Positions 5,281 through 45,220 of a DNA stretch of 45,220 nucleotides are shown here, piece after piece (position 1 is the first letter of the stretch; every line of letters starts with the position of its first letter). The stretch lies in the IMG/VR virus record IMGVR_UViG_3300010354_000006. One strand, written 5' to 3'. The DNA is from a virus. Made by a program: the position numbers and the translations under genes. The notes under the pieces were generated by a model. That model did no database searches, had not been told where the DNA came from, and saw only the letters and a list, made by a program, of their open reading frames with translations.

Positions 5281-5449
5281 AACTTTAGTTCTTCAAACAG
5301 AAGAAGAATTAAACAAGATCAAGAAAATGTATCCTGAATCTGATTTTGTTAGGTGCATTAAATGGATAGAATTAAGGCTACCAGAGAAGGCTTCTTTAAT
5401 AATTAATGGTAAAAATTATCACCGCTTTAGATTGGAGAGCAAAAAATGA
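5255..5449 (+). CDS. Hypothetical protein (64 aa)
   Basis: ORF track; start uncertain. Confidence 0.35.
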   Translation: MKKPKPPIRTLVLQTEEELNKIKKMYPESDFVRCIKWIELRLPEKASLIINGKNYHRFRLESKK

Positions 5450-5799
5450 AAATTACATACCCAGATTACATCCCAAATTGGAGCGGCTCAAGAGGCAGAG
5501 CATACCCCTCACCAGAAGACATCGCAAGAACGAATCCGCAAGCTAAAGGCTTAAGTGATAAGCAAAGAAAACTTTTACAAAGGCATCATATTGATTTAGA
5601 CCGCATGAACGCAGACCCTAAAAACATACACCTGCTTGACCCTGCGACTCACGAAGCAGTACACCGCCAAGAAAGAGCTTTATCTTCTGCTTTAATTAAA
5701 GCTGGAATTGTCAAGTACGATAAGCAAAATCCACATTATTACATCGCACATCCTCAAGTGAGAAAAATTTTAGAAAAAATGTTTGTGGGGGGTAAATGA
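5446..5799 (+). CDS. Hypothetical protein with HNH-like His/Asn motif (possible nuclease)
   Basis: RHHIDLDRMNADPKNIHLLDPATHEAVH has HH...N...H...H spacing; no Cys zinc ligands, weak call. Confidence 0.35.
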   Translation: MKITYPDYIPNWSGSRGRAYPSPEDIARTNPQAKGLSDKQRKLLQRHHIDLDRMNADPKNIHLLDPATHEAVHRQERALSSALIKAGIVKYDKQNPHYYIAHPQVRKILEKMFVGGK

Positions 5800-6365
5800 T
5801 AATTGTAGGAATCGACCCAGGGATAAAAGGTGGAATAGCTATTATAAATAGCGAATCCCCGAACACGCCAGCAGTTTACCCTATGCCTATTAGGCAAGAA
5901 GAAACTAAAACAAAAAAGAAAGTTAAAGCCTTAACAAAAAAAGAAAAGCTCGCTAAAAAACAAGGTAAAACCATTTATAAAACTAAAAATATCATAGACT
6001 CTAAAGCTTTTTTTGACATCTTGTATGAAGTCATCATGACAACTAGAGATATTGATTTAGTTTTAATCGAGAAACCTTTTTATCTTGGCATAGAATCTAG
6101 GACTTCTACTGCTACTACTGCTGAAAATTACGGACGATTAAGGGGAATCATGGAGTCATGCAAGTTAGATGTTAAAACAGTTAGGCCGCAAGAATGGAAA
6201 AATTACTTCGATTTGCCTGCTGATAAAGGGGAAGCAATAGCTAAGGCTAAAGAGCTATTCCCCTTAGTGAATTTAAAAGCTTCTAATAGGTCAAGAACAG
6301 ACTCAGACGGCATGGCAGAAGCTTTGCTAATAGCAGAATATGGGAGAATTAAAAATGCTAATTGA
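5796..6365 (+). CDS. RuvC-like Holliday junction resolvase
   Basis: N-terminal IIVGIDPGIKGGIAII (RuvC GIDPG block), IEKPF acidic residue, C-terminal DSDGMAEALLIAEYG resembling the RuvC DAADALAIA catalytic block. Confidence 0.7.
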   Translation: MIIVGIDPGIKGGIAIINSESPNTPAVYPMPIRQEETKTKKKVKALTKKEKLAKKQGKTIYKTKNIIDSKAFFDILYEVIMTTRDIDLVLIEKPFYLGIESRTSTATTAENYGRLRGIMESCKLDVKTVRPQEWKNYFDLPADKGEAIAKAKELFPLVNLKASNRSRTDSDGMAEALLIAEYGRIKNAN

Positions 6366-6588
6366 AAAACTTAAAGAAAAACTAAAAGAAATCACAGAGC
6401 CAAGCCTAAAGCTTAATGCTATTAAGGCTTACCTAAGTAGCCACCTAGAAAGCTTTGTAGAAGCCATGATAACCACAGGCTCTAGCGACCACATGAAAAA
6501 GATTGATGAGACTTATAAATATAACTCTAATGGCTATCAGTTTGAGATTAGCATTAAGTTTGAAAAGGATATAGGGTTTAAGAAATGA
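6340..6588 (+). CDS. Hypothetical protein; more likely start at ATG 6355 (GGGAG RBS)
   Basis: ORF track; coiled-coil-like N-terminus. Confidence 0.4.
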   Translation: MGELKMLIEKLKEKLKEITEPSLKLNAIKAYLSSHLESFVEAMITTGSSDHMKKIDETYKYNSNGYQFEISIKFEKDIGFKK

Positions 6589-6624
6589 GATTTTTAATTA
6601 ACTTTTTAAAAGCACTTGGAGTTT
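6584..6624. repeat. 41-bp direct repeat, copy 1 (encodes a truncated 13-aa MRFLINFLKALGV peptide)
   Basis: Matches 6889-6929 with 2 mismatches. Confidence 0.8.
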
Positions 6625-6629
6625 AAAGA

Positions 6630-6893
6630 ATGAGTACAATAGCGAATCTAGAAATATATTTTAGAAATTACAAAGATTGCATTTCCCCATATTTTTGCGA
6701 TAAGGATGAAATTTTATTTATTTGCAAAAAAGAAATTAAAAAAAGAAAGAGGGGTAGCGATGAACCTTTTAAAACTATTTTTATCGGTGGTACAGTGGGA
6801 GAAACTAAAGCTTTCATCGATGGCGTACTTAAGGCTCATTGGTACATAGACAAGTTACTTCAAAGCAAATTAGGCGAGGTCAGGGGAGAATGA
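6630..6893 (+). CDS. Hypothetical protein (87 aa) flanked by the 41-bp repeats
   Basis: ORF track; flanking duplicated junction. Confidence 0.4.
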   Translation: MSTIANLEIYFRNYKDCISPYFCDKDEILFICKKEIKKRKRGSDEPFKTIFIGGTVGETKAFIDGVLKAHWYIDKLLQSKLGEVRGE

Positions 6894-6929
6894 GATTTTT
6901 AATTAACTTCTTAAAAGCACTTGGGGTTT
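6889..6929. repeat. 41-bp direct repeat, copy 2 (start of the intact membrane protein gene)
   Basis: Matches 6584-6624 with 2 mismatches. Confidence 0.8.
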
Positions 6930-7090
6930 TTCTTGGCTATGGATTAGGCAGTTATTTAGTTTTTGAGCTTTTAAAGACTTACGCCGCTTCATTTATACCT
7001 TATTTAATTTGGGTATTTTTCTGGCTTTTGGTTGTTTCTATTTGTGCTTTATGTGCTTCTTGGGCTTGCCACATGGAGAGGACGAAATGA
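6890..7090 (+). CDS. Small membrane protein, holin-like candidate (66 aa)
   Basis: Start moved to in-frame ATG 6890 (track ORF began 6839); two hydrophobic segments. Confidence 0.4.
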   Translation: MRFLINFLKALGVFLGYGLGSYLVFELLKTYAASFIPYLIWVFFWLLVVSICALCASWACHMERTK

Positions 7091-7239
7091 GTAAAGAACT
7101 TGTACTGCAAACTATAGCTATGTTTTTATTGTCATGGCTTTACTGCTATGCTCTTTCAAAAGAAACTTGGCTTAGTGTGATTACTGCCGCTCTGATGGCG
7201 ATTCTTTCTGTTATCAGCTATTACTTTAAAAAAAAGTAG
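7087..7239 (+). CDS. Small membrane protein (50 aa)
   Basis: ATG 7087 after GGAGAGGA RBS (track ORF began 7009); hydrophobic helix. Confidence 0.35.
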   Translation: MSKELVLQTIAMFLLSWLYCYALSKETWLSVITAALMAILSVISYYFKKK

Positions 7240-7422
7240 TATATAATTTTTGTATGAAAGTTAGATCAAAACCAGCACCTAAAAAAACTATGCCAGCTCC
7301 AAAGACTGGTAAAAAATGTAAATAATGGCTTTTTTTGCTAGGAGAAAATGTCAGCAGTGAACTTTTTAAATCGACTATGGGCTTTTATTGAATCTCTTTT
7401 AGAAGCCTTAGAGGAACTTTAA

Positions 7423-7824
7423 ATGCTAGAATTTAGTGAATTTGATTTTAAAAAAGACTTAGAGCCTAATTTTTCGCAAGTCAAATTAACAATGCGTGTA
7501 ACAAAACCGTATCACGTTAAAGTAATTAAACCAAAACATAAGCTTGATGGGGTAACTGCCACAGTACCCGAAGGTTATCTGACTGATGGAATGAGCATAC
7601 CTAAATGGTTACAGCCTGCTATCGGTGAACCCTTTGAAGGCAATACTTTAAGAGCTGCTTTATTTCACGATGCCTTATGCTGCTATCAAATTAAAAGCCA
7701 AAAAATTACACATGGCTTATTTGAATTGATTTTAAAAGAAGATGGCTTCCCTTTTTGGAAACGTAAAGCTGCTTACCTTGCAGTTGTTAGCTGGAACAGG
7801 TTAAAAAATCCCAAATGGAAATAA
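7423..7824 (+). CDS. DUF1353-like protein
   Basis: VPEGYLTDGMSIP ... AALFHDALC resembles the DUF1353 signature (GF.TDG.SIP ... HD). Confidence 0.45.
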   Translation: MLEFSEFDFKKDLEPNFSQVKLTMRVTKPYHVKVIKPKHKLDGVTATVPEGYLTDGMSIPKWLQPAIGEPFEGNTLRAALFHDALCCYQIKSQKITHGLFELILKEDGFPFWKRKAAYLAVVSWNRLKNPKWK

Positions 7825-7926
7825 TGTCATCGCCCTGCATGGTCTCTAAAAACCATATTCTTGACACCAGTAATATGGTTAAAACTTAATCAGCGATTGG
7901 GTTATGTTGTCGGTATGTCGTTGGAA

Positions 7927-7956
7927 TGTCCAGTTTTTAACGTGATAAACTGGACA
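7927..7956 (+). other. Perfect 10-bp stem hairpin (TGTCCAGTTT / AAACTGGACA, 10-nt loop) in a 236-bp ORF-free region
   Basis: Inverted repeat read directly; no T-run after it. Confidence 0.5.
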
Positions 7957-8060
7957 TAATCAAATAACAGTCAAATAAGCAAACGTTCTTCCCAAAACGG
8001 GGATTCCCGTTTCGGGAATAACTAACCCCTACCAAATCAAATAAGAGGTAAAATGTAAGC

Positions 8061-8477
8061 ATGACGATTTTAAACCGCCAATTAACACCTAACATAAGCC
8101 TCTATGAGCTTCTTTACACCCCAACTGTAAACAAAGCTGAAATAGCCCCGCTCATTGAGCAGGCTTGGAGTATTGAGGTAGATAGAAACTTAACTAAACT
8201 TGCTACTGCTTTGCAGATCATTAGAGATTATTTTGGTAAACCTTTAATCATCACGAGTGGCTTTAGACCTGTAACTTGGGAATTAAAAAGAAATAGAAGC
8301 GGTAAATCCCAACATACTAGCGGACTAGCTGCTGATTTTAGGGTCTCAGGCGTGCCACTTTCAGAAGTCTATGCTTTTGTTAATGCGACTTTTAAAAAAG
8401 GTGGTAGAGCTATAAACCCTGTAGCAAATTTTATTCACTTAGATTTAAGACCAGAATATGCCACTTGGACTTATTAA
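8061..8477 (+). CDS. Peptidase M15 family (LAS-type zinc peptidase), endolysin-like
   Basis: SGFRP, SQHTSGLAADF and FIHLD blocks give the H..D...H zinc-ligand pattern of M15 peptidases. Confidence 0.6.
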   Translation: MTILNRQLTPNISLYELLYTPTVNKAEIAPLIEQAWSIEVDRNLTKLATALQIIRDYFGKPLIITSGFRPVTWELKRNRSGKSQHTSGLAADFRVSGVPLSEVYAFVNATFKKGGRAINPVANFIHLDLRPEYATWTY

Positions 8478-8524
8478 CCAAACTTTAAACTCAATAAGGT
8501 AAAAGAAAAGAGTACAACTTAATC

Positions 8525-9310: not shown

Positions 9311-9616
9311 TTACCTTTCTCTCTGTCTTTCTTCTTTTAAAAACTCTTTAAAATTATCCTTAAGCTCATTTAAAGCAGCAATAACCATGCGAAAATTCTC
9401 TTCAATTTTAATTGTTGATTTTTCTAAGCCTTTAATATCTTTGCCCTGTTCATCAGTCCTAACTTCTAAAGCTAAAATCTTTTTATCTAAAACTTTTAAT
9501 TGTGGCTCTATGACTAAGTTGTAAAAAATAATAAGTACAGTTAATTCACCACCAATGATTGAACCAACAAGCATTAACAATTCATAGGATTTAAAGATGT
9601 ACTCTGTTTCCGTCAT
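9311..9616 (-). CDS. Membrane-anchored coiled-coil protein (101 aa)
   Basis: N-terminal hydrophobic helix then charged helical region. Confidence 0.45.
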   Translation of the reverse strand: MTETEYIFKSYELLMLVGSIIGGELTVLIIFYNLVIEPQLKVLDKKILALEVRTDEQGKDIKGLEKSTIKIEENFRMVIAALNELKDNFKEFLKEERQRER

Positions 9617-10449
9617 TTTAATACTACAGTAACACCGATTTGCTCTTCTGCTTTACCCGATAAGAAAACTTTTAATAAACCGCCTTCAACTTTAACTAAA
9701 TAATTTAAATTCTCAGGATTAACAGGTAATGAAGCACCATTCGTGTTAGACTTTATTCTGTTTTCGCCTAAAAGATTTTGTATTAAGACTCTCAGCTCAG
9801 CATCAAAAAAAGTACCTTGAGACCCCATAGCTGTAATTTGAATTAAAGCTTTGTAGTTAGACTGCTTTAATTCAAATGCTGCTACTTGGGTAAGCTCGCT
9901 GCTAATTAAAATTGTTTCTTTTGTCGGATATTCAGCACCATCTTTACCCTTTTCGCCTTGCTCGCCCTTCTCCCCTTTCTCGCCCTTTAAATCCCCTAAA
10001 TTATTTTTCCATTCTTCAAATAAAGAAGCTAATTCTTTTTTCGCAAAATCATAATCAAATTCTGCATTTAAGCCATCTTTACCATTAATGCCATCTTTAC
10101 CATCTTTACCATTAATGCCATCTTTACCATTTTTGCCATTAACACCATTCTTGCCATCAAGACCATTCAAGCCATCTTTGCCATCAAGTCCGTTTAAACC
10201 ATCCTTGCCATCAAGTCCGTTTAAACCATCTTTGCCATCAGCTCCATTTAAGCCAGCTTCCCCTTGCTCGCCCTTGTCGCCTTTTTGACCCTTGAGCTTA
10301 TCTACTTTTTTCGCTAAAAGCTTTTCAACTTCTTGATTGAAAACGTCTAAAACCCTTTCTTTTAAAGGCTCTTTAAATTCTTCGCTAAATAGTTCACCTA
10401 TTTGAACTAGTCTGTTTTCTATTTTTGCTGCACCCGCTCCGCCTAACAT
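9613..10449 (-). CDS. Collagen-like repeat protein (Gly-X-Y), probable tail fibre
   Basis: Long run of G-X-Y triplets (GKDGLNGLDGKDGLNGLDGK...) encoded by tandem DNA repeats at about 10080-10260. Confidence 0.65.
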   Translation of the reverse strand: MLGGAGAAKIENRLVQIGELFSEEFKEPLKERVLDVFNQEVEKLLAKKVDKLKGQKGDKGEQGEAGLNGADGKDGLNGLDGKDGLNGLDGKDGLNGLDGKNGVNGKNGKDGINGKDGKDGINGKDGLNAEFDYDFAKKELASLFEEWKNNLGDLKGEKGEKGEQGEKGKDGAEYPTKETILISSELTQVAAFELKQSNYKALIQITAMGSQGTFFDAELRVLIQNLLGENRIKSNTNGASLPVNPENLNYLVKVEGGLLKVFLSGKAEEQIGVTVVLK

Positions 10450-37466: not shown

Positions 37467-38195
37467 TATACCACGATATATAAAAATATACCACTGTTAA
37501 TTTAAATATATCTCAGCGGGACTTTATCCTTCTAGCTCTCACTAGCCTGCATTGAAAACTCTAGTCTTTCGGTTTAATCACATAGATTTTTATGTGGTTA
37601 GTTATTGCTTGTTTAAATCGGTTTAAATCAATTTCTTTTTATTCTTGGGATGATTATGGCTTTAATAAGGTTTTCTTTTAACCTGTGGCAGAATAAAGGG
37701 GTTTTGTGAAGTTTTCTAGTTGGTTGTTAGGTTGGTTTATTACATTGCTGAAATTTGAAATTTTTTATGTGTAGCGAGAGGGGATGCAGTGATAATTTAA
37801 AGGGGTGGCATGGGGTAAAGGATGTTACCCGTAAATACTTTTCTGCTTTTATTACTCTAGAATTACCCTTATACAGTGCCATATTCAAGATAACATTATA
37901 TTATCTTAAGTAAGAACGTGATTGTAGAGCCATTTCAGTATGTTGTTAAAGATAATATACAGAAATTAAGGGGTAGCTACCGAGTATTGGGGGGTATCTT
38001 ATAGTGATTAATGATTGATGACTGATGATCTCTCTCTTATATATTCTTTATCGCTTGCATGTGTTACCCTGCTCGACACATTAACATCATTTCTCATTCT
38101 AAACAAAAACGAGAAACGAATAAAACTCATTCTCAGAAAGCAACTATTCAATTTTACCTACCTACTAGTAGGTAAAAGTTATACCTAACAATTAA

Positions 38196-38288
38196 GCCTA
38201 AAGTGGACTATAGGGTTTAATTAATATAAAGTCTAAAGTGGACTATAGGGTTACAGTAGTAATAAAGCCTATAGTGGACTATAGGGTT
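38196..38288. repeat. Three direct copies of a 22-bp motif GYCTAWAGTGGACTATAGGGTT (38196-38217, 38231-38252, 38267-38288)
   Basis: Read directly; 35-36 bp periodicity; adjacent 12-bp palindrome CCTACTAGTAGG at 38161-38172. Confidence 0.85.
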
Positions 38289-38516
38289 ATAAAGGCTTTC
38301 TAATCAACATTCCTTACTTATCGGCGTAACGATTAAAAACAAGCGAGGCTAGTATTAGTATCTTTTTGTTGTTTTACTTATGACATAAGACAATAGAACA
38401 TTAAATATATTTAATATATCACACCATAACTATATAATCCCTTGAAACCTAGTCCAGTAGTGCATTTCAAGGATTTATAAGTTATTTGATTGATAAAAAA
38501 ATATTTAATAAAAGTG

Positions 38517-38748: not shown

Positions 38749-38778
38749 GACCTAAGCAAGTCTTTAAACTGCTTAAGG
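38749..38778 (+). promoter_or_regulatory. Intercistronic element A copy 1 (imperfect palindrome overlapping RBS)
   Basis: GACCTAAGCAAGTCTTTAAACTGCTTAAGG; TAAGCA / TGCTTA inverted repeat. Confidence 0.6.
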
Positions 38779-38786
38779 AAAAAGAA

Positions 38787-38942
38787 ATGAAAAACAATCA
38801 ACTAATAGAAAAATACAATATCACAGCTAAGGATATAGCAGTAATCGAGGATCATCTTCATTATGGTTATGGTTACGAGTATTTAGAAGCTAGGTTCAGT
38901 TTCTCTGAGTTAGAGGTAATTCTAGACACTTGGAGCATTTAA
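38787..38942 (+). CDS. Small early protein (51 aa)
   Basis: ATG at 38787 after AAGGAAAAAG RBS; track ORF began at TTG 38733. Confidence 0.35.
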   Translation: MKNNQLIEKYNITAKDIAVIEDHLHYGYGYEYLEARFSFSELEVILDTWSI

Positions 38943-38952
38943 TTATTAGGAT

Positions 38953-38982
38953 GACCTGAGCAAGTCTTTAAACTGCTTAAGG
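38953..38982 (+). promoter_or_regulatory. Intercistronic element A copy 2
   Basis: GACCTGAGCAAGTCTTTAAACTGCTTAAGG. Confidence 0.6.
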
Positions 38983-38991
38983 AGTAAAGAA

Positions 38992-39225
38992 ATGAAAAAA
39001 TTTGACCACTTAAAAAACATTAAAAGCCTGCTAAACCAGCAGTTGAAAAAGCATGGGTTAAAACTACCTGTGCATGCTGAGCTGAAAGACATGGCTATTT
39101 TGTCTGATATCTTAGCAGGTAGGATTACAGAAATAGACTTAGCTTTTGCGATAGCAAAGATAGAGTCAAGAGCTGATAAGGCTTGTATAGCAGCTAGCAA
39201 AGTAACAGAAAGGGAGAGTAAGTAA
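38992..39225 (+). CDS. Hypothetical early protein (77 aa)
   Basis: ORF track. Confidence 0.4.
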   Translation: MKKFDHLKNIKSLLNQQLKKHGLKLPVHAELKDMAILSDILAGRITEIDLAFAIAKIESRADKACIAASKVTERESK

Positions 39226-39936: not shown

Positions 39937-40003
39937 AACTATCAGCTAACCGATTCTACACCATCTCAACGGCATGGTGTAGAACTGGTAAGCACCAGTT
40001 AAA
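39937..40003 (+). ncRNA. Intercistronic element B copy 1: conserved leader, 11-bp stem hairpin (39954-39964 / 39974-39984), second short hairpin, then RBS
   Basis: TTCTACACCAT / ATGGTGTAGAA perfect stem; ACTGGT-AAGC-ACCAGT second hairpin. Confidence 0.55.
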
Positions 40004-40023
40004 GAAAAAAGGAAAATAAAAAA

Positions 40024-40707
40024 ATGAATAACTACATAGGTGTCTTAATAAAAAGAAAAAATGGCATATTGACTAATGCTACTTGCTTAGGAATAAGAGA
40101 GTTAATTAAGAACAATAGCCATAACTCGGTATGGTTACAAGCAAATGGTAAATGTTCTTACGGACACTATGCTAAAAAGCATACTGATGGTTATCTATAT
40201 AGCCATGAAGAGTATACGGATAATTGGGATGGTGCAGTATATTCAACAACATTAAAATATTATCCTACCAGTAAACCAGTTCAAATGACAAAATGGCAAC
40301 TAGAAAGAGATCAGATTGAAAAGAAAGAAGATTTACTAGAATCAGCTAAGATATTTTTACGTAACTTGAGCAAAGAATTAATAGAAATAGAAAAATTCAA
40401 TCAGCTAGTATCTGAAGGAATTAAGCAAGATAAAAAAATAACGGGTAGTGAATTAGTATTTTTAGCTGATTACTACAAGGTAGATATTCCCATTAGAACT
40501 CGTGGTTATTATTTAAATAAATTACACAGGGTAACAGCTACTGAGATTAAAGATAAAGAAGTTTCAAGGATTAGTTACCTTGCTGAAGGTAAATTAAATA
40601 GAGATATTCTTTATAGAACATTAGATTTGATCATAAATGAAATGTATCCAGAAGAGGTTACAGTAAAAGAGCAAGAAACTTTCAATCGATTATTTAAAGT
40701 TGCATAG
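40024..40707 (+). CDS. Hypothetical early protein (227 aa)
   Basis: ORF track. Confidence 0.5.
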   Translation: MNNYIGVLIKRKNGILTNATCLGIRELIKNNSHNSVWLQANGKCSYGHYAKKHTDGYLYSHEEYTDNWDGAVYSTTLKYYPTSKPVQMTKWQLERDQIEKKEDLLESAKIFLRNLSKELIEIEKFNQLVSEGIKQDKKITGSELVFLADYYKVDIPIRTRGYYLNKLHRVTATEIKDKEVSRISYLAEGKLNRDILYRTLDLIINEMYPEEVTVKEQETFNRLFKVA

Positions 40708-40776
40708 AACTATCATCAAGCTAACCGCTTCTAGCATATCTAATAGCATATGCTGGAACTGGTTATCACCAGATAA
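40708..40776 (+). ncRNA. Intercistronic element B copy 2: same architecture, stem 40729-40739 / 40748-40758 with compensatory changes
   Basis: TTCTAGCATAT / ATATGCTGGAA (one G-U wobble); CTGGT-TATC-ACCAG. Confidence 0.55.
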
Positions 40777-40791
40777 AGGAAAAAGGAAAAA

Positions 40792-41199
40792 ATGAAAATG
40801 ATTAAAATTAATTATGAAATAGATATAGATTTAATAGTTTCTTTTTTAAAAAGAGCTACACACAGTAGGAATAAGTCTAAAAAAAATAATTCTATAGAAT
40901 TAACTATAGAAGACTGCCATGAAATAAGTGAGCTACTTCACGATTTTACTCCAAAGAGAATCTTCTCTCAAACCAATAGCGAATGTGAATTAATAGATAC
41001 TATGTTCGCTAAAGAAGTCTTAAGAAAACTTCCATTTTTAGCTAAGTGTGAAGGATTTGAGATGGAAAACGGGCTTTTAAGTTCTCTTTCCTATAATTTA
41101 TTTCAGTTTTTAGCTGGAAATTTTGTTTTAGGTGAAACATCTCGTTTAGAATCTGTCAAAACAAAAGCCAATAATAGTTTTTTAGAATTTATTAAATAA
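40792..41199 (+). CDS. Hypothetical early protein (135 aa)
   Basis: ORF track. Confidence 0.45.
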   Translation: MKMIKINYEIDIDLIVSFLKRATHSRNKSKKNNSIELTIEDCHEISELLHDFTPKRIFSQTNSECELIDTMFAKEVLRKLPFLAKCEGFEMENGLLSSLSYNLFQFLAGNFVLGETSRLESVKTKANNSFLEFIK

Positions 41200-41215: not shown

Positions 41216-41536
41216 ATGACAACAATGGAACACACAATAAAAACAACAATAGAAACTATCGAAGGCGTAAGCGATTACAGCTTATTCGCAGTGGACGAAG
41301 CAATTGACTCGCTGGAATTCCAAAAAAGATTAAGTTATGGCTATGCCAAAAATAAACTTAATTTTGAAATAGATTTAATTAATTACTTTAAAAGTCATCC
41401 AAATTTCAACAATATGTGGAACTGTTATAGCTTTGATGAGGAGGACAGCGAAGAGCCAATTAACGTAGAATTTGAATTTGAATTTGAGCTGGAAGATTTA
41501 CCGCAACACTTGCAAGATGGTTACGAAAGTTTTTAG
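41216..41536 (+). CDS. Small highly acidic protein (106 aa) with EFEFEFELED tract
   Basis: Composition read directly. Confidence 0.45.
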   Translation: MTTMEHTIKTTIETIEGVSDYSLFAVDEAIDSLEFQKRLSYGYAKNKLNFEIDLINYFKSHPNFNNMWNCYSFDEEDSEEPINVEFEFEFELEDLPQHLQDGYESF

Positions 41537-41605
41537 AACTATCATCAAGCTAACCGATTCTAGCACTTACTAATCCAAGTGCTGGAACTGGTTATCACCA
41601 GATAT
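41537..41605 (+). ncRNA. Intercistronic element B copy 3: stem 41558-41568 / 41577-41587 with compensatory changes
   Basis: TTCTAGCACTT / AAGTGCTGGAA (one G-U wobble); CTGGT-TATC-ACCAG. Confidence 0.55.
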
Positions 41606-41618
41606 AGGAAAAAAACAA

Positions 41619-41756
41619 ATGACAATATTCAAAACACAACACGATTTAATGAATGATGAGTATTACTTAGAGATACTGGGAATTAGAGTATCCAATGCGA
41701 TAGCTAATTTCTTGGTTAGATTAGGAGTTATTCAAGAGAACGAAAATATTTAGAGC
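41619..41756 (+). CDS. Small hypothetical protein (45 aa), below the ORF-track cutoff
   Basis: ATG directly after element B copy 3. Confidence 0.25.
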
Positions 41757-45081: not shown

Positions 45082-45186
45082 ATGAACGAACTAGAAGAAT
45101 TAAAAACAGTGCAATTAATTATTAATTTTGTCGTAGTAATAGCTATCCTAGCTGTAGCCGTAACAGTTGGGAGGTACTTGGGATGA
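45082..45186 (+). CDS. Small membrane peptide (34 aa, single predicted TM helix); stop overlaps ATG of the 65-aa ORF (equivalent to 86..283)
   Basis: AAGGAAAAG RBS; hydrophobic core IINFVVVIAILAVAVTV. Confidence 0.3.
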   Translation: MNELEELKTVQLIINFVVVIAILAVAVTVGRYLG

Positions 45187-45220
45187 GAGAATTAGACCGC
45201 CAAAAATGGCTTCCAGTGGA
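45098..45220. repeat. Second copy of the 123-bp terminal direct repeat
   Basis: Exact match to 1-123. Confidence 0.9.

Follow-up and report, generated by a model that had tools for sequence, protein, structure and literature searches.

Genome and gene order

The window, by which we mean the whole 45,220-nt stretch of viral DNA analysed, is a complete tailed-phage genome that encodes a large terminase, a collagen-like tail fibre, and tail proteins. Its ends (1-123 and 45098-45220) are identical over 123 nt, so that it represents a circular or terminally overlapping assembly of a genome of 45,097 bp unique length, with a G+C content of 35.8%. The locus considered here belongs to a plus-strand operon that runs, in order, through an HNH endonuclease gene (5446-5799), a RuvC-like Holliday junction resolvase gene (5796-6365, with RusA in the same position in some relatives), a 77-aa gene (6355-6588; 82 aa if read from the ATG at 6340, and hence called the 77/82-aa gene), the short stretch termed the scar below, an 87-aa gene (6630-6893), genes for membrane proteins of 66 aa (6890-7090) and 50 aa (7087-7239), a DUF1353 gene, and an M15 endolysin gene. 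The HNH gene thus lies two genes upstream of the scar. Two further plus-strand genes add to the recombination context: one for an Erf-like single-strand annealing protein (2037-2480; phrog_155, E = 3.6e-32) and one for a Mu Gam-like DNA end-protection protein (1588-2034).

We found no cultured relative: megablast of positions 5400-8500 against 50,697 phage records gave no match, tblastn with the 87-aa protein gave none among the phage records, and the large terminase matches phage relatives only at <30% identity. The sole genome match is a 1.6-kb contig of a cyanobacterial MAG. The relatives used for comparison are about 30 related contigs, designated by L numbers, all of them metagenomic. In some of these a gene with an Acb2/Tad1 hairpin domain, of an anti-defence sponge family, lies between the DUF1353 and endolysin genes (L016 5919-6164, L021 3433-3684, and L047 ~3251, on the minus strand); no Acb2/Tad1-domain gene is present at the equivalent place in the window (7824-8061).

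The window contains several other kinds of repetitive sequence. The 278-aa collagen-like tail fibre gene (9613-10449, minus strand) has long stretches with 9-nt periodicity. Three tandem 35-nt repeats (ATWAAGYCTAWAGTGGACTATAGGGTT..) at 38191-38296 lie in the large non-coding region that separates divergent gene blocks, and are iteron- or operator-like. An 82-nt direct repeat (38749-38830 and 38953-39034; 71% identical overall, with a near-identical core of ~45 nt, GACCTRAGCAAGTCTTTAAACTGCTTAAGGA..AGAAATGAAAAA) precedes a 51-aa ORF (ATG 38788) and a 77-aa ORF (38992) in succession, and is thus another duplicated gene start flanking a small gene. Finally, an intergenic repeat of 50-100 nt occurs three times (39982-40031, 40705-40805, and 41534-41634), each time ahead of one of three successive genes, and consists of a hairpin, GAACTGGTnAnCACCAG, followed by a ribosome-binding region, a layout like that of PeSL-type regulatory cassettes.

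A 41-nt direct repeat encloses the 87-aa gene

The 87-aa gene is enclosed by two copies of a 41-nt direct repeat: AATGAGATTTTTAATTAACTTTTTAAAAGCACTTGGAGTTT at 6584-6624, and a second copy at 6889-6929 that carries C for T at 6910 and G for A at 6925 (39/41 identical). The repeat is real and non-random, since a comparable pair arose in 0/100 dinucleotide shuffles and the window holds these two copies only, with no third at up to three mismatches. Copy 1 consists of the preceding A and nucleotides 1-40 of the 66-aa gene, that is, a truncated copy of the neighbouring gene's start that stops after 13 codons; the resulting stump ORF, MRFLINFLKALGV (6585-6626), ends in TAA at 6624-6626. Its ATG at 6585 overlaps the stop TGA (6586-6588) of the 77/82-aa gene, whose 3' tail GGGTTTAAGAAATGA (6574-6588) forms an ATGA junction. 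Copy 2 is the start of the intact resident 66-aa gene, whose ATG at 6890 is overlapped by the TGA of the 87-aa gene and after which the 50-aa gene is the next member of the ATGA-coupled chain. The 66-aa and 50-aa proteins are hydrophobic, with 19-aa Kyte-Doolittle maxima of 2.5 and 2.0, respectively. The first-pass annotation had described a duplicated 41-bp gene junction, each copy containing an ATGA overlap and the first 13 codons of a membrane protein, with one copy left as a 13-aa remnant and the other running on into the intact protein; the repeat and its reading frames agree with this description throughout.

The 77/82-aa gene is found in about 25 related contigs at 75-97% identity and in every case ends in ..GFK(K/E) and an ATGA overlap. 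In this gene and in the 66-aa gene alike, the part best conserved among the relatives is the first 30 nt (mean pairwise identity 0.90-0.98). Promoter-like or terminator-like sites were absent from positions 6300-7100, Rfam and tRNA scans gave no match, and both junctions, like the scarless one, folded no better as RNA than shuffled sequences (z = +1.2).

The copy ahead of the 87-aa gene ends in a novel joint

The bases that follow copy 1 (TTTAAAGAATGAG; GTTT followed by AAAGAATGAG at 6621-6634) are the 3' tail of a 77/82-aa gene. The tail fragment, GAGTTTAAAGAATGA at 6619-6633, is a remnant of the 3' end of a donor gene with the allele AAAGA, which differs at two positions from the AAGAA of the window's own 77/82-aa tail (TTTAAGAAATGA, 6574-6588); the corresponding tail allele, TTTAAAGAATGA, is present in L039, L042, L043, and L022. 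The illegitimate joint itself, GGAGTTTAA (6618-6626), lies in a 9-nt microhomology, GGRGTTTAA, shared by the 66-aa gene (codons 12-13) and the 77/82-aa gene (3' tail, GGGGTTTAA), and since codons 11-13 of the 66-aa gene read CTTGG(A/G)GTTT, the switch falls within GGRGTTT(AA). Judged by its sequence, the scar is chimeric, consisting of a 66-aa gene head and a 77/82-aa gene tail. We also considered whether it could be the deletion remnant of a second full 66-aa gene and rejected this candidate, as the bases after the stump match the 77/82-aa tail and not the junction of the 66-aa and 87-aa genes in L018.

Genomes of the donor type can be recognized among the relatives. In L015, L020, L021, L044, L047, and L053 the 87-aa gene comes immediately after the 77/82-aa gene, the two overlapping at ATGA, and the donor-type junction, GGGGTTTAAAGA followed by ATGAGTAC, occurs in L047, L053, and L022. 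Two of these contigs (L047 and L053) read GATGTGGGGTTTAAAGA directly before ATGAGTAC and then continue into the same 87-aa allele without the scar. The inserted unit thus appears to derive from sibling phages with the 87-aa gene directly behind the 77/82-aa gene, the tail end of the latter having been retained at 6619-6633. Furthermore, L047 and the scar-bearing L048 form a near-isogenic pair, with only 2 mismatches over 1,770 nt to the right and a single one over the final ~900 nt to the left. What separates them is a segment of exactly 200 nt, made up of a 52-aa gene and the 40-nt head, with GGGGTTTAA and GGAGTTTAA as its borders, a pattern characteristic of an illegitimate event mediated by microhomology.

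Relatives with a single junction copy

We write 82-66 and 82-87 for arrangements in which the 77/82-aa gene runs directly into the 66-aa or the 87-aa gene. The 82-66 order, with a single junction copy, is found in nine related contigs (L002, L018, L035, L036, L037, L040, L042, L043, and L045). The comparison proposed in the first-pass annotation, an alignment with relatives that lack the 87-aa gene, therefore gave the single copy predicted there, and the presence of both copies in all relatives, which had been named as evidence against an insertion, is not what we find in this group.

The closest relative on the left flank is L035, which is 98.6% identical to the window (8/578 mismatches) up to position 6614 and from there carries its own 66-aa gene. 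Beyond the insert, on the right, 53/567 positions differ (9.3%, compared with 1.4% on the left; Fisher p = 5e-10), so that relatedness switches at the scar, as expected of a recombinant; in this right-hand region L040 is 96% identical to the window. The exact left parent is not among the sampled genomes, as L035 has TTAGCGGTTT where copy 1 has CTTGGAGTTT.

The 87-aa gene and its protein

Homologues of the 87-aa protein (67-92% identical) are limited to this phage group and always lie in this region. Codon differences are split about evenly between synonymous and non-synonymous ones, and from its sequence we read the gene as being under moderate purifying selection; residues 1-70 of the protein are conserved and the C terminus is variable. 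The protein is soluble and the gene is an acquired one, with a G+C content of 33% next to 34-35% in its neighbours. Searches of Pfam, PHROGs, NCBIfam, and PADLOC gave no match for the 87-aa, 77/82-aa, and 50-aa proteins and sub-threshold matches only for the 66-aa protein. A profile search of the 87-aa protein against PDB sequences returned chance-level matches only (best E = 0.0025 over 37 residues), and an AlphaFold2 model from a 9-sequence alignment has a mean pLDDT of 59.

The 309-nt block occurs in several genomic backgrounds

Further scar-bearing contigs were found by exact-protein look-up; an IMG/VR search for the novel joint returned only the same phage. The block formed by the stump, the tail fragment, and the 87-aa gene (6585-6893) is identical at 309/309 positions in the window, L048/L052, and L051, copy 1 likewise being base-identical in these contigs. 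The 45-nt scar is shared without change by the window, L050, L048, L052, and L051, and the 87-aa gene is identical at 264/264 positions in L050, L048, L052, L051, and the scarless L047, with one mismatch in L053.

The surroundings of the block differ. Upstream of the scar lies the 77/82-aa gene in the window and L050, a 52-aa gene in L048 and L052, and a 93-aa gene in L051; downstream, the 66-aa allele is of the window type in L050 and 72-73% identical to the window's in L048, L052, and L051. The 93-aa gene of L051 (404-685, MREPNLDP..) has its last six codons inside the 66-aa head, in another frame, where it ends in ..YDEIFN and a stop codon, so that by its reading frame this upstream gene would need the head copy to be complete. 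The identical block in differing backgrounds indicates that the illegitimate joint arose once and that later exchanges then carried the block into at least three backgrounds. Its identity at every site, moreover, points to recent spread by recombination and not to selection on a 13-residue peptide.

Gene-end duplications recur in the phage group

Short duplications of gene ends are found elsewhere among the relatives. A copy of the 77/82-aa gene tail, 25-26 nt long, flanks a 90-aa form of the gene in L021, L044, and L034, and L044 and L045 differ by a precise 269-nt indel. The first 18-38 nt of the 77/82-aa gene are repeated ahead of one or two extra genes in L002, L026, and L037. The tail of the gene (GATGTGGGGTTTAARGAATGA, ..DVGFKE) occurs three times in L022 (3761-4475; also in L023): as an orphan remnant before an 87-aa homologue, at the 3' end of that homologue, and at the 3' end of an unrelated 134-aa gene. 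In L016 (3943-4005) an in-frame internal deletion has cut the 77/82-aa gene to 20 codons (MLIEKLKEKLREIKDVGFKE) while its start and its ATGA-coupled end are kept. Overall, the interval between the 77/82-aa and 66-aa genes holds at least six different genes across the relatives.

Some further features of these loci were noted. In L037 (1679-2424), genes of 171, 69, and 77 aa in a row share a 38-nt start made up of a ribosome-binding site and the MLIEKF head, which indicates two successive insertions, each with duplication of the head. The L022 contig also carries an IS1595 transposase, a ScaI-type restriction-modification pair, and an IS605 OrfB/TnpB gene. In three contigs (L030 3231-3620, L041 685-1089, and L015 4258-4644) an unrelated N-terminal domain (MKIEDLIIGKDYLYK..) has been fused in frame ahead of the 66-aa gene, whose start codon is replaced (..NLTRFLINF..), giving a product of 128-134 aa. 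The resolvase position is occupied in all loci by either RusA or a RuvC-like gene, and in L027 (2469-3011) the RuvC-like gene ends with a RusA C-terminal tail (..EEKSRLEVDQARRIFDAN), which places a resolvase replacement breakpoint, too, just inside a gene end.

Proposed origin of the repeat

We consider it very probable that the 41-nt repeat is a recombination scar that was formed, and then spread, in two steps. The initial proposal that the 87-aa gene was inserted by recombination with duplication of the junction is thus upheld as far as the recombination scar is concerned, but not in the sense of an autonomous cassette with a target-site duplication. From the sequence, the initial step would have been a single illegitimate microhomology joint, in which nucleotide 40 of the 66-aa gene (..CTTGGAGTTT) was joined to the 77/82-aa tail (GGGGTTT followed by AAAGAATGA) directly ahead of the 87-aa gene in a sibling phage. 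The likeliest route would be an intermolecular unequal crossover between a genome in which some gene X precedes the 66-aa gene (X-66) and an 82-87-66 genome. Its product would run from X through the 66-aa stump, the tail fragment, and the 87-aa gene to an intact 66-aa gene, leaving the flanking genes and all ATGA overlaps intact. Excision of a circle of ~305 bp and its re-insertion by a single crossover would give the same product as the unequal crossover.

In the second step, the 309-nt block, whose distribution among diverged members of the group is described above, would have been moved between them by homologous recombination, with breakpoints in or beside the short head repeat and the 87-aa gene. 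The window would then have taken its left arm from an L035-like 82-66 phage and its right arm, which begins with the 87-aa gene, from another lineage. The Erf-like annealing protein, together with a RuvC or RusA resolvase, probably carried out this short-homology exchange; Erf-type recombinases are reported to be active on diverged sequences (PMC3945230). The 13-codon ORF is a by-product of the joint, and as GGAG lies 8 nt and its TAA 3 nt ahead of the ATG at 6630, it may relay coupled translation to the 87-aa gene.

A broader reading is possible, which we put forward tentatively and regard as rather doubtful: that three coding modules, two of them from the 77/82-aa gene (its first 18-38 nt and its last 21-25 nt) and one from the 66-aa gene (its first 40 nt), serve both as natural homology arms and as adaptors for translational coupling, and that small accessory genes thereby behave as cassettes. 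If so, a gene with a duplicated module could be excised, possibly as a circle of ~300 bp, and re-inserted beside any gene bearing the module through the Erf-like system. Such an arrangement would parallel the T4 PeSL system at the level of coding sequence and would account for the 309-nt block in at least three backgrounds.

Alternative explanations

Were the scar arrangement the older one, the single-junction and 82-87 relatives would be deletion derivatives, formed through the repeats or the 9-nt microhomology, and nothing would have been inserted here. Direct repeats of 41 nt are good deletion substrates, the difference between L047 and L048 is most simply explained in one step as a 200-nt microhomology deletion, and the same insertion/deletion ambiguity is acknowledged for Island3/Brujita. 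We nevertheless think this polarity unlikely: the change in divergence between the two flanks of L035 shows that it is not a simple deletion derivative, the 82-66 order occurs in nine diverged lineages and the 82-87 order with 87-aa alleles that are themselves only 67-92% identical, whereas the scar is found with one allele only and is base-identical, and a full 66-aa gene is needed as the source of the stump either way. Template switching within one 82-87-66 genome, in which its own 66-aa head was copied to the 82-87 junction during replication or repair, would produce the observed topology and would be helped by microhomologies at both ends (AATGAG and GGGTTT). It is distinctly improbable, however, given that the tail fragment has the allele of other phages in place of the window's own, that copy 1 differs from the resident copy at 2/41 positions yet is identical to copy 1 in other backgrounds, and that the divergence of L035 switches at the scar.

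The repeat could also have been kept for its function, with the stump under selection as an upstream ORF or leader peptide controlling how the 87-aa gene is translated. The ATGA-coupled start of the stump and the spacing of its TAA and of GGAG before the ATG at 6630 would suit such a role, as would its presence in three genomic contexts, in one of which (L051) the 93-aa gene ends inside the head. We give this explanation very little credence, because the same 87-aa allele lacks the stump in L047 and L053, the whole block is identical including synonymous sites and so carries no selection signal, and RNA folding revealed no significant structure. Insertion of a transposon, homing element, or integron-type element with a target-site duplication is suggested by an extra gene flanked by a direct repeat and by the nearby HNH endonuclease gene, but terminal inverted repeats were not found (5-14/30 matches), neither a transposase nor an integrase is present, and the insert matches no family. 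A duplication of 41 nt is far longer than those made by transposases, and the length is not fixed, being 41 nt here and 18-38 nt at other sites; as for homing, the HNH gene does not co-vary with the insert, being present in L037, L040, and L036, all without the 87-aa gene. Nor is the scar an assembly artefact: it was recovered in independent assemblies from JGI, Logan, and ENA and in several samples, and the joint homology of only 9 nt is shorter than assembler k-mers. Element insertion and artefact alike are, in our view, extremely improbable.

Comparison with known systems

The two-step origin favoured here can be set beside several known kinds of gene acquisition in phages. Morons of lambdoid phages (Juhala/Hendrix) carry their own promoter and terminator and often have a deviant base composition. 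The 87-aa gene resembles them as an extra gene between two genes that are adjacent in relatives, but it shows no promoter or terminator signal, has the G+C content of its neighbours, and is translationally chained to them through ATGA or TAA-N3-ATG; having no promoter or terminator of its own, it is not a moron in the strict sense.

The closest precedent is gene 68 of mycobacteriophage Island3, a small gene absent from a close relative and flanked by direct repeats of ~50 bp (Pope et al. 2011, PMC3029335). The Island3 repeat comes from the end of a neighbouring gene, and the authors read the arrangement as recombination near gene boundaries, with ambiguity between insertion and deletion (PMC3029335). 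Both loci thus share an extra small gene, a repeat derived from a neighbouring gene's end, and the same ambiguity of direction. In Island3, however, the repeat stems from the 3' end of the upstream gene and supplies the C terminus of the inserted gene, as in L021, L044, and L034, whereas the repeat of the window stems from the 5' end of the downstream gene and survives as a 13-codon stump. Furthermore, donor-type genomes, the microhomology joint, and its later spread are all visible in the window's group, unlike in Island3.

A functional analogue is the PeSL-mediated modular shuffling of T4-type phages, in which mini-circles are involved (Arbiol et al. 2010, PMC2839356). There, as here, small dispensable genes of a hyperplastic region lie between short direct repeats, which also bound the indels seen among close relatives, and a circle with one repeat and the gene would account for re-insertion. 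PeSLs, however, are intergenic cassettes of a promoter and a stem-loop terminator dispersed through the genome, whereas the window repeats are coding gene ends with ATGA overlaps, with no promoter, terminator, or significant fold and in two copies only. For the subsequent spread, the relevant comparison is the relaxed homologous recombination by Rad52-like annealing proteins described for E. coli temperate phages (De Paepe et al. 2014, PMC3945230). The window phage encodes such a protein of the Erf-like type and its mosaic borders likewise lie in short residual homology; the homologies used in the E. coli temperate phages are longer diverged ones, and activity of Erf on the 40-nt heads seen here is what we infer.

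The locus is thus a clear new example of a known process, illegitimate and then short-homology recombination giving mosaic genomes, and no new kind of system. Most stages of the gain of a phage accessory gene can be followed in sequences that differ by a few bases, from a relative similar to the left parent and a genome of the donor type, through the microhomology joint and two near-isogenic contigs that differ in the segment, to the later spread of the block. The locus therefore lends itself well as a natural test case for the frequency with which illegitimate joints give rise to new gene orders and for the way in which residual homologies of 20-40 nt then spread them.
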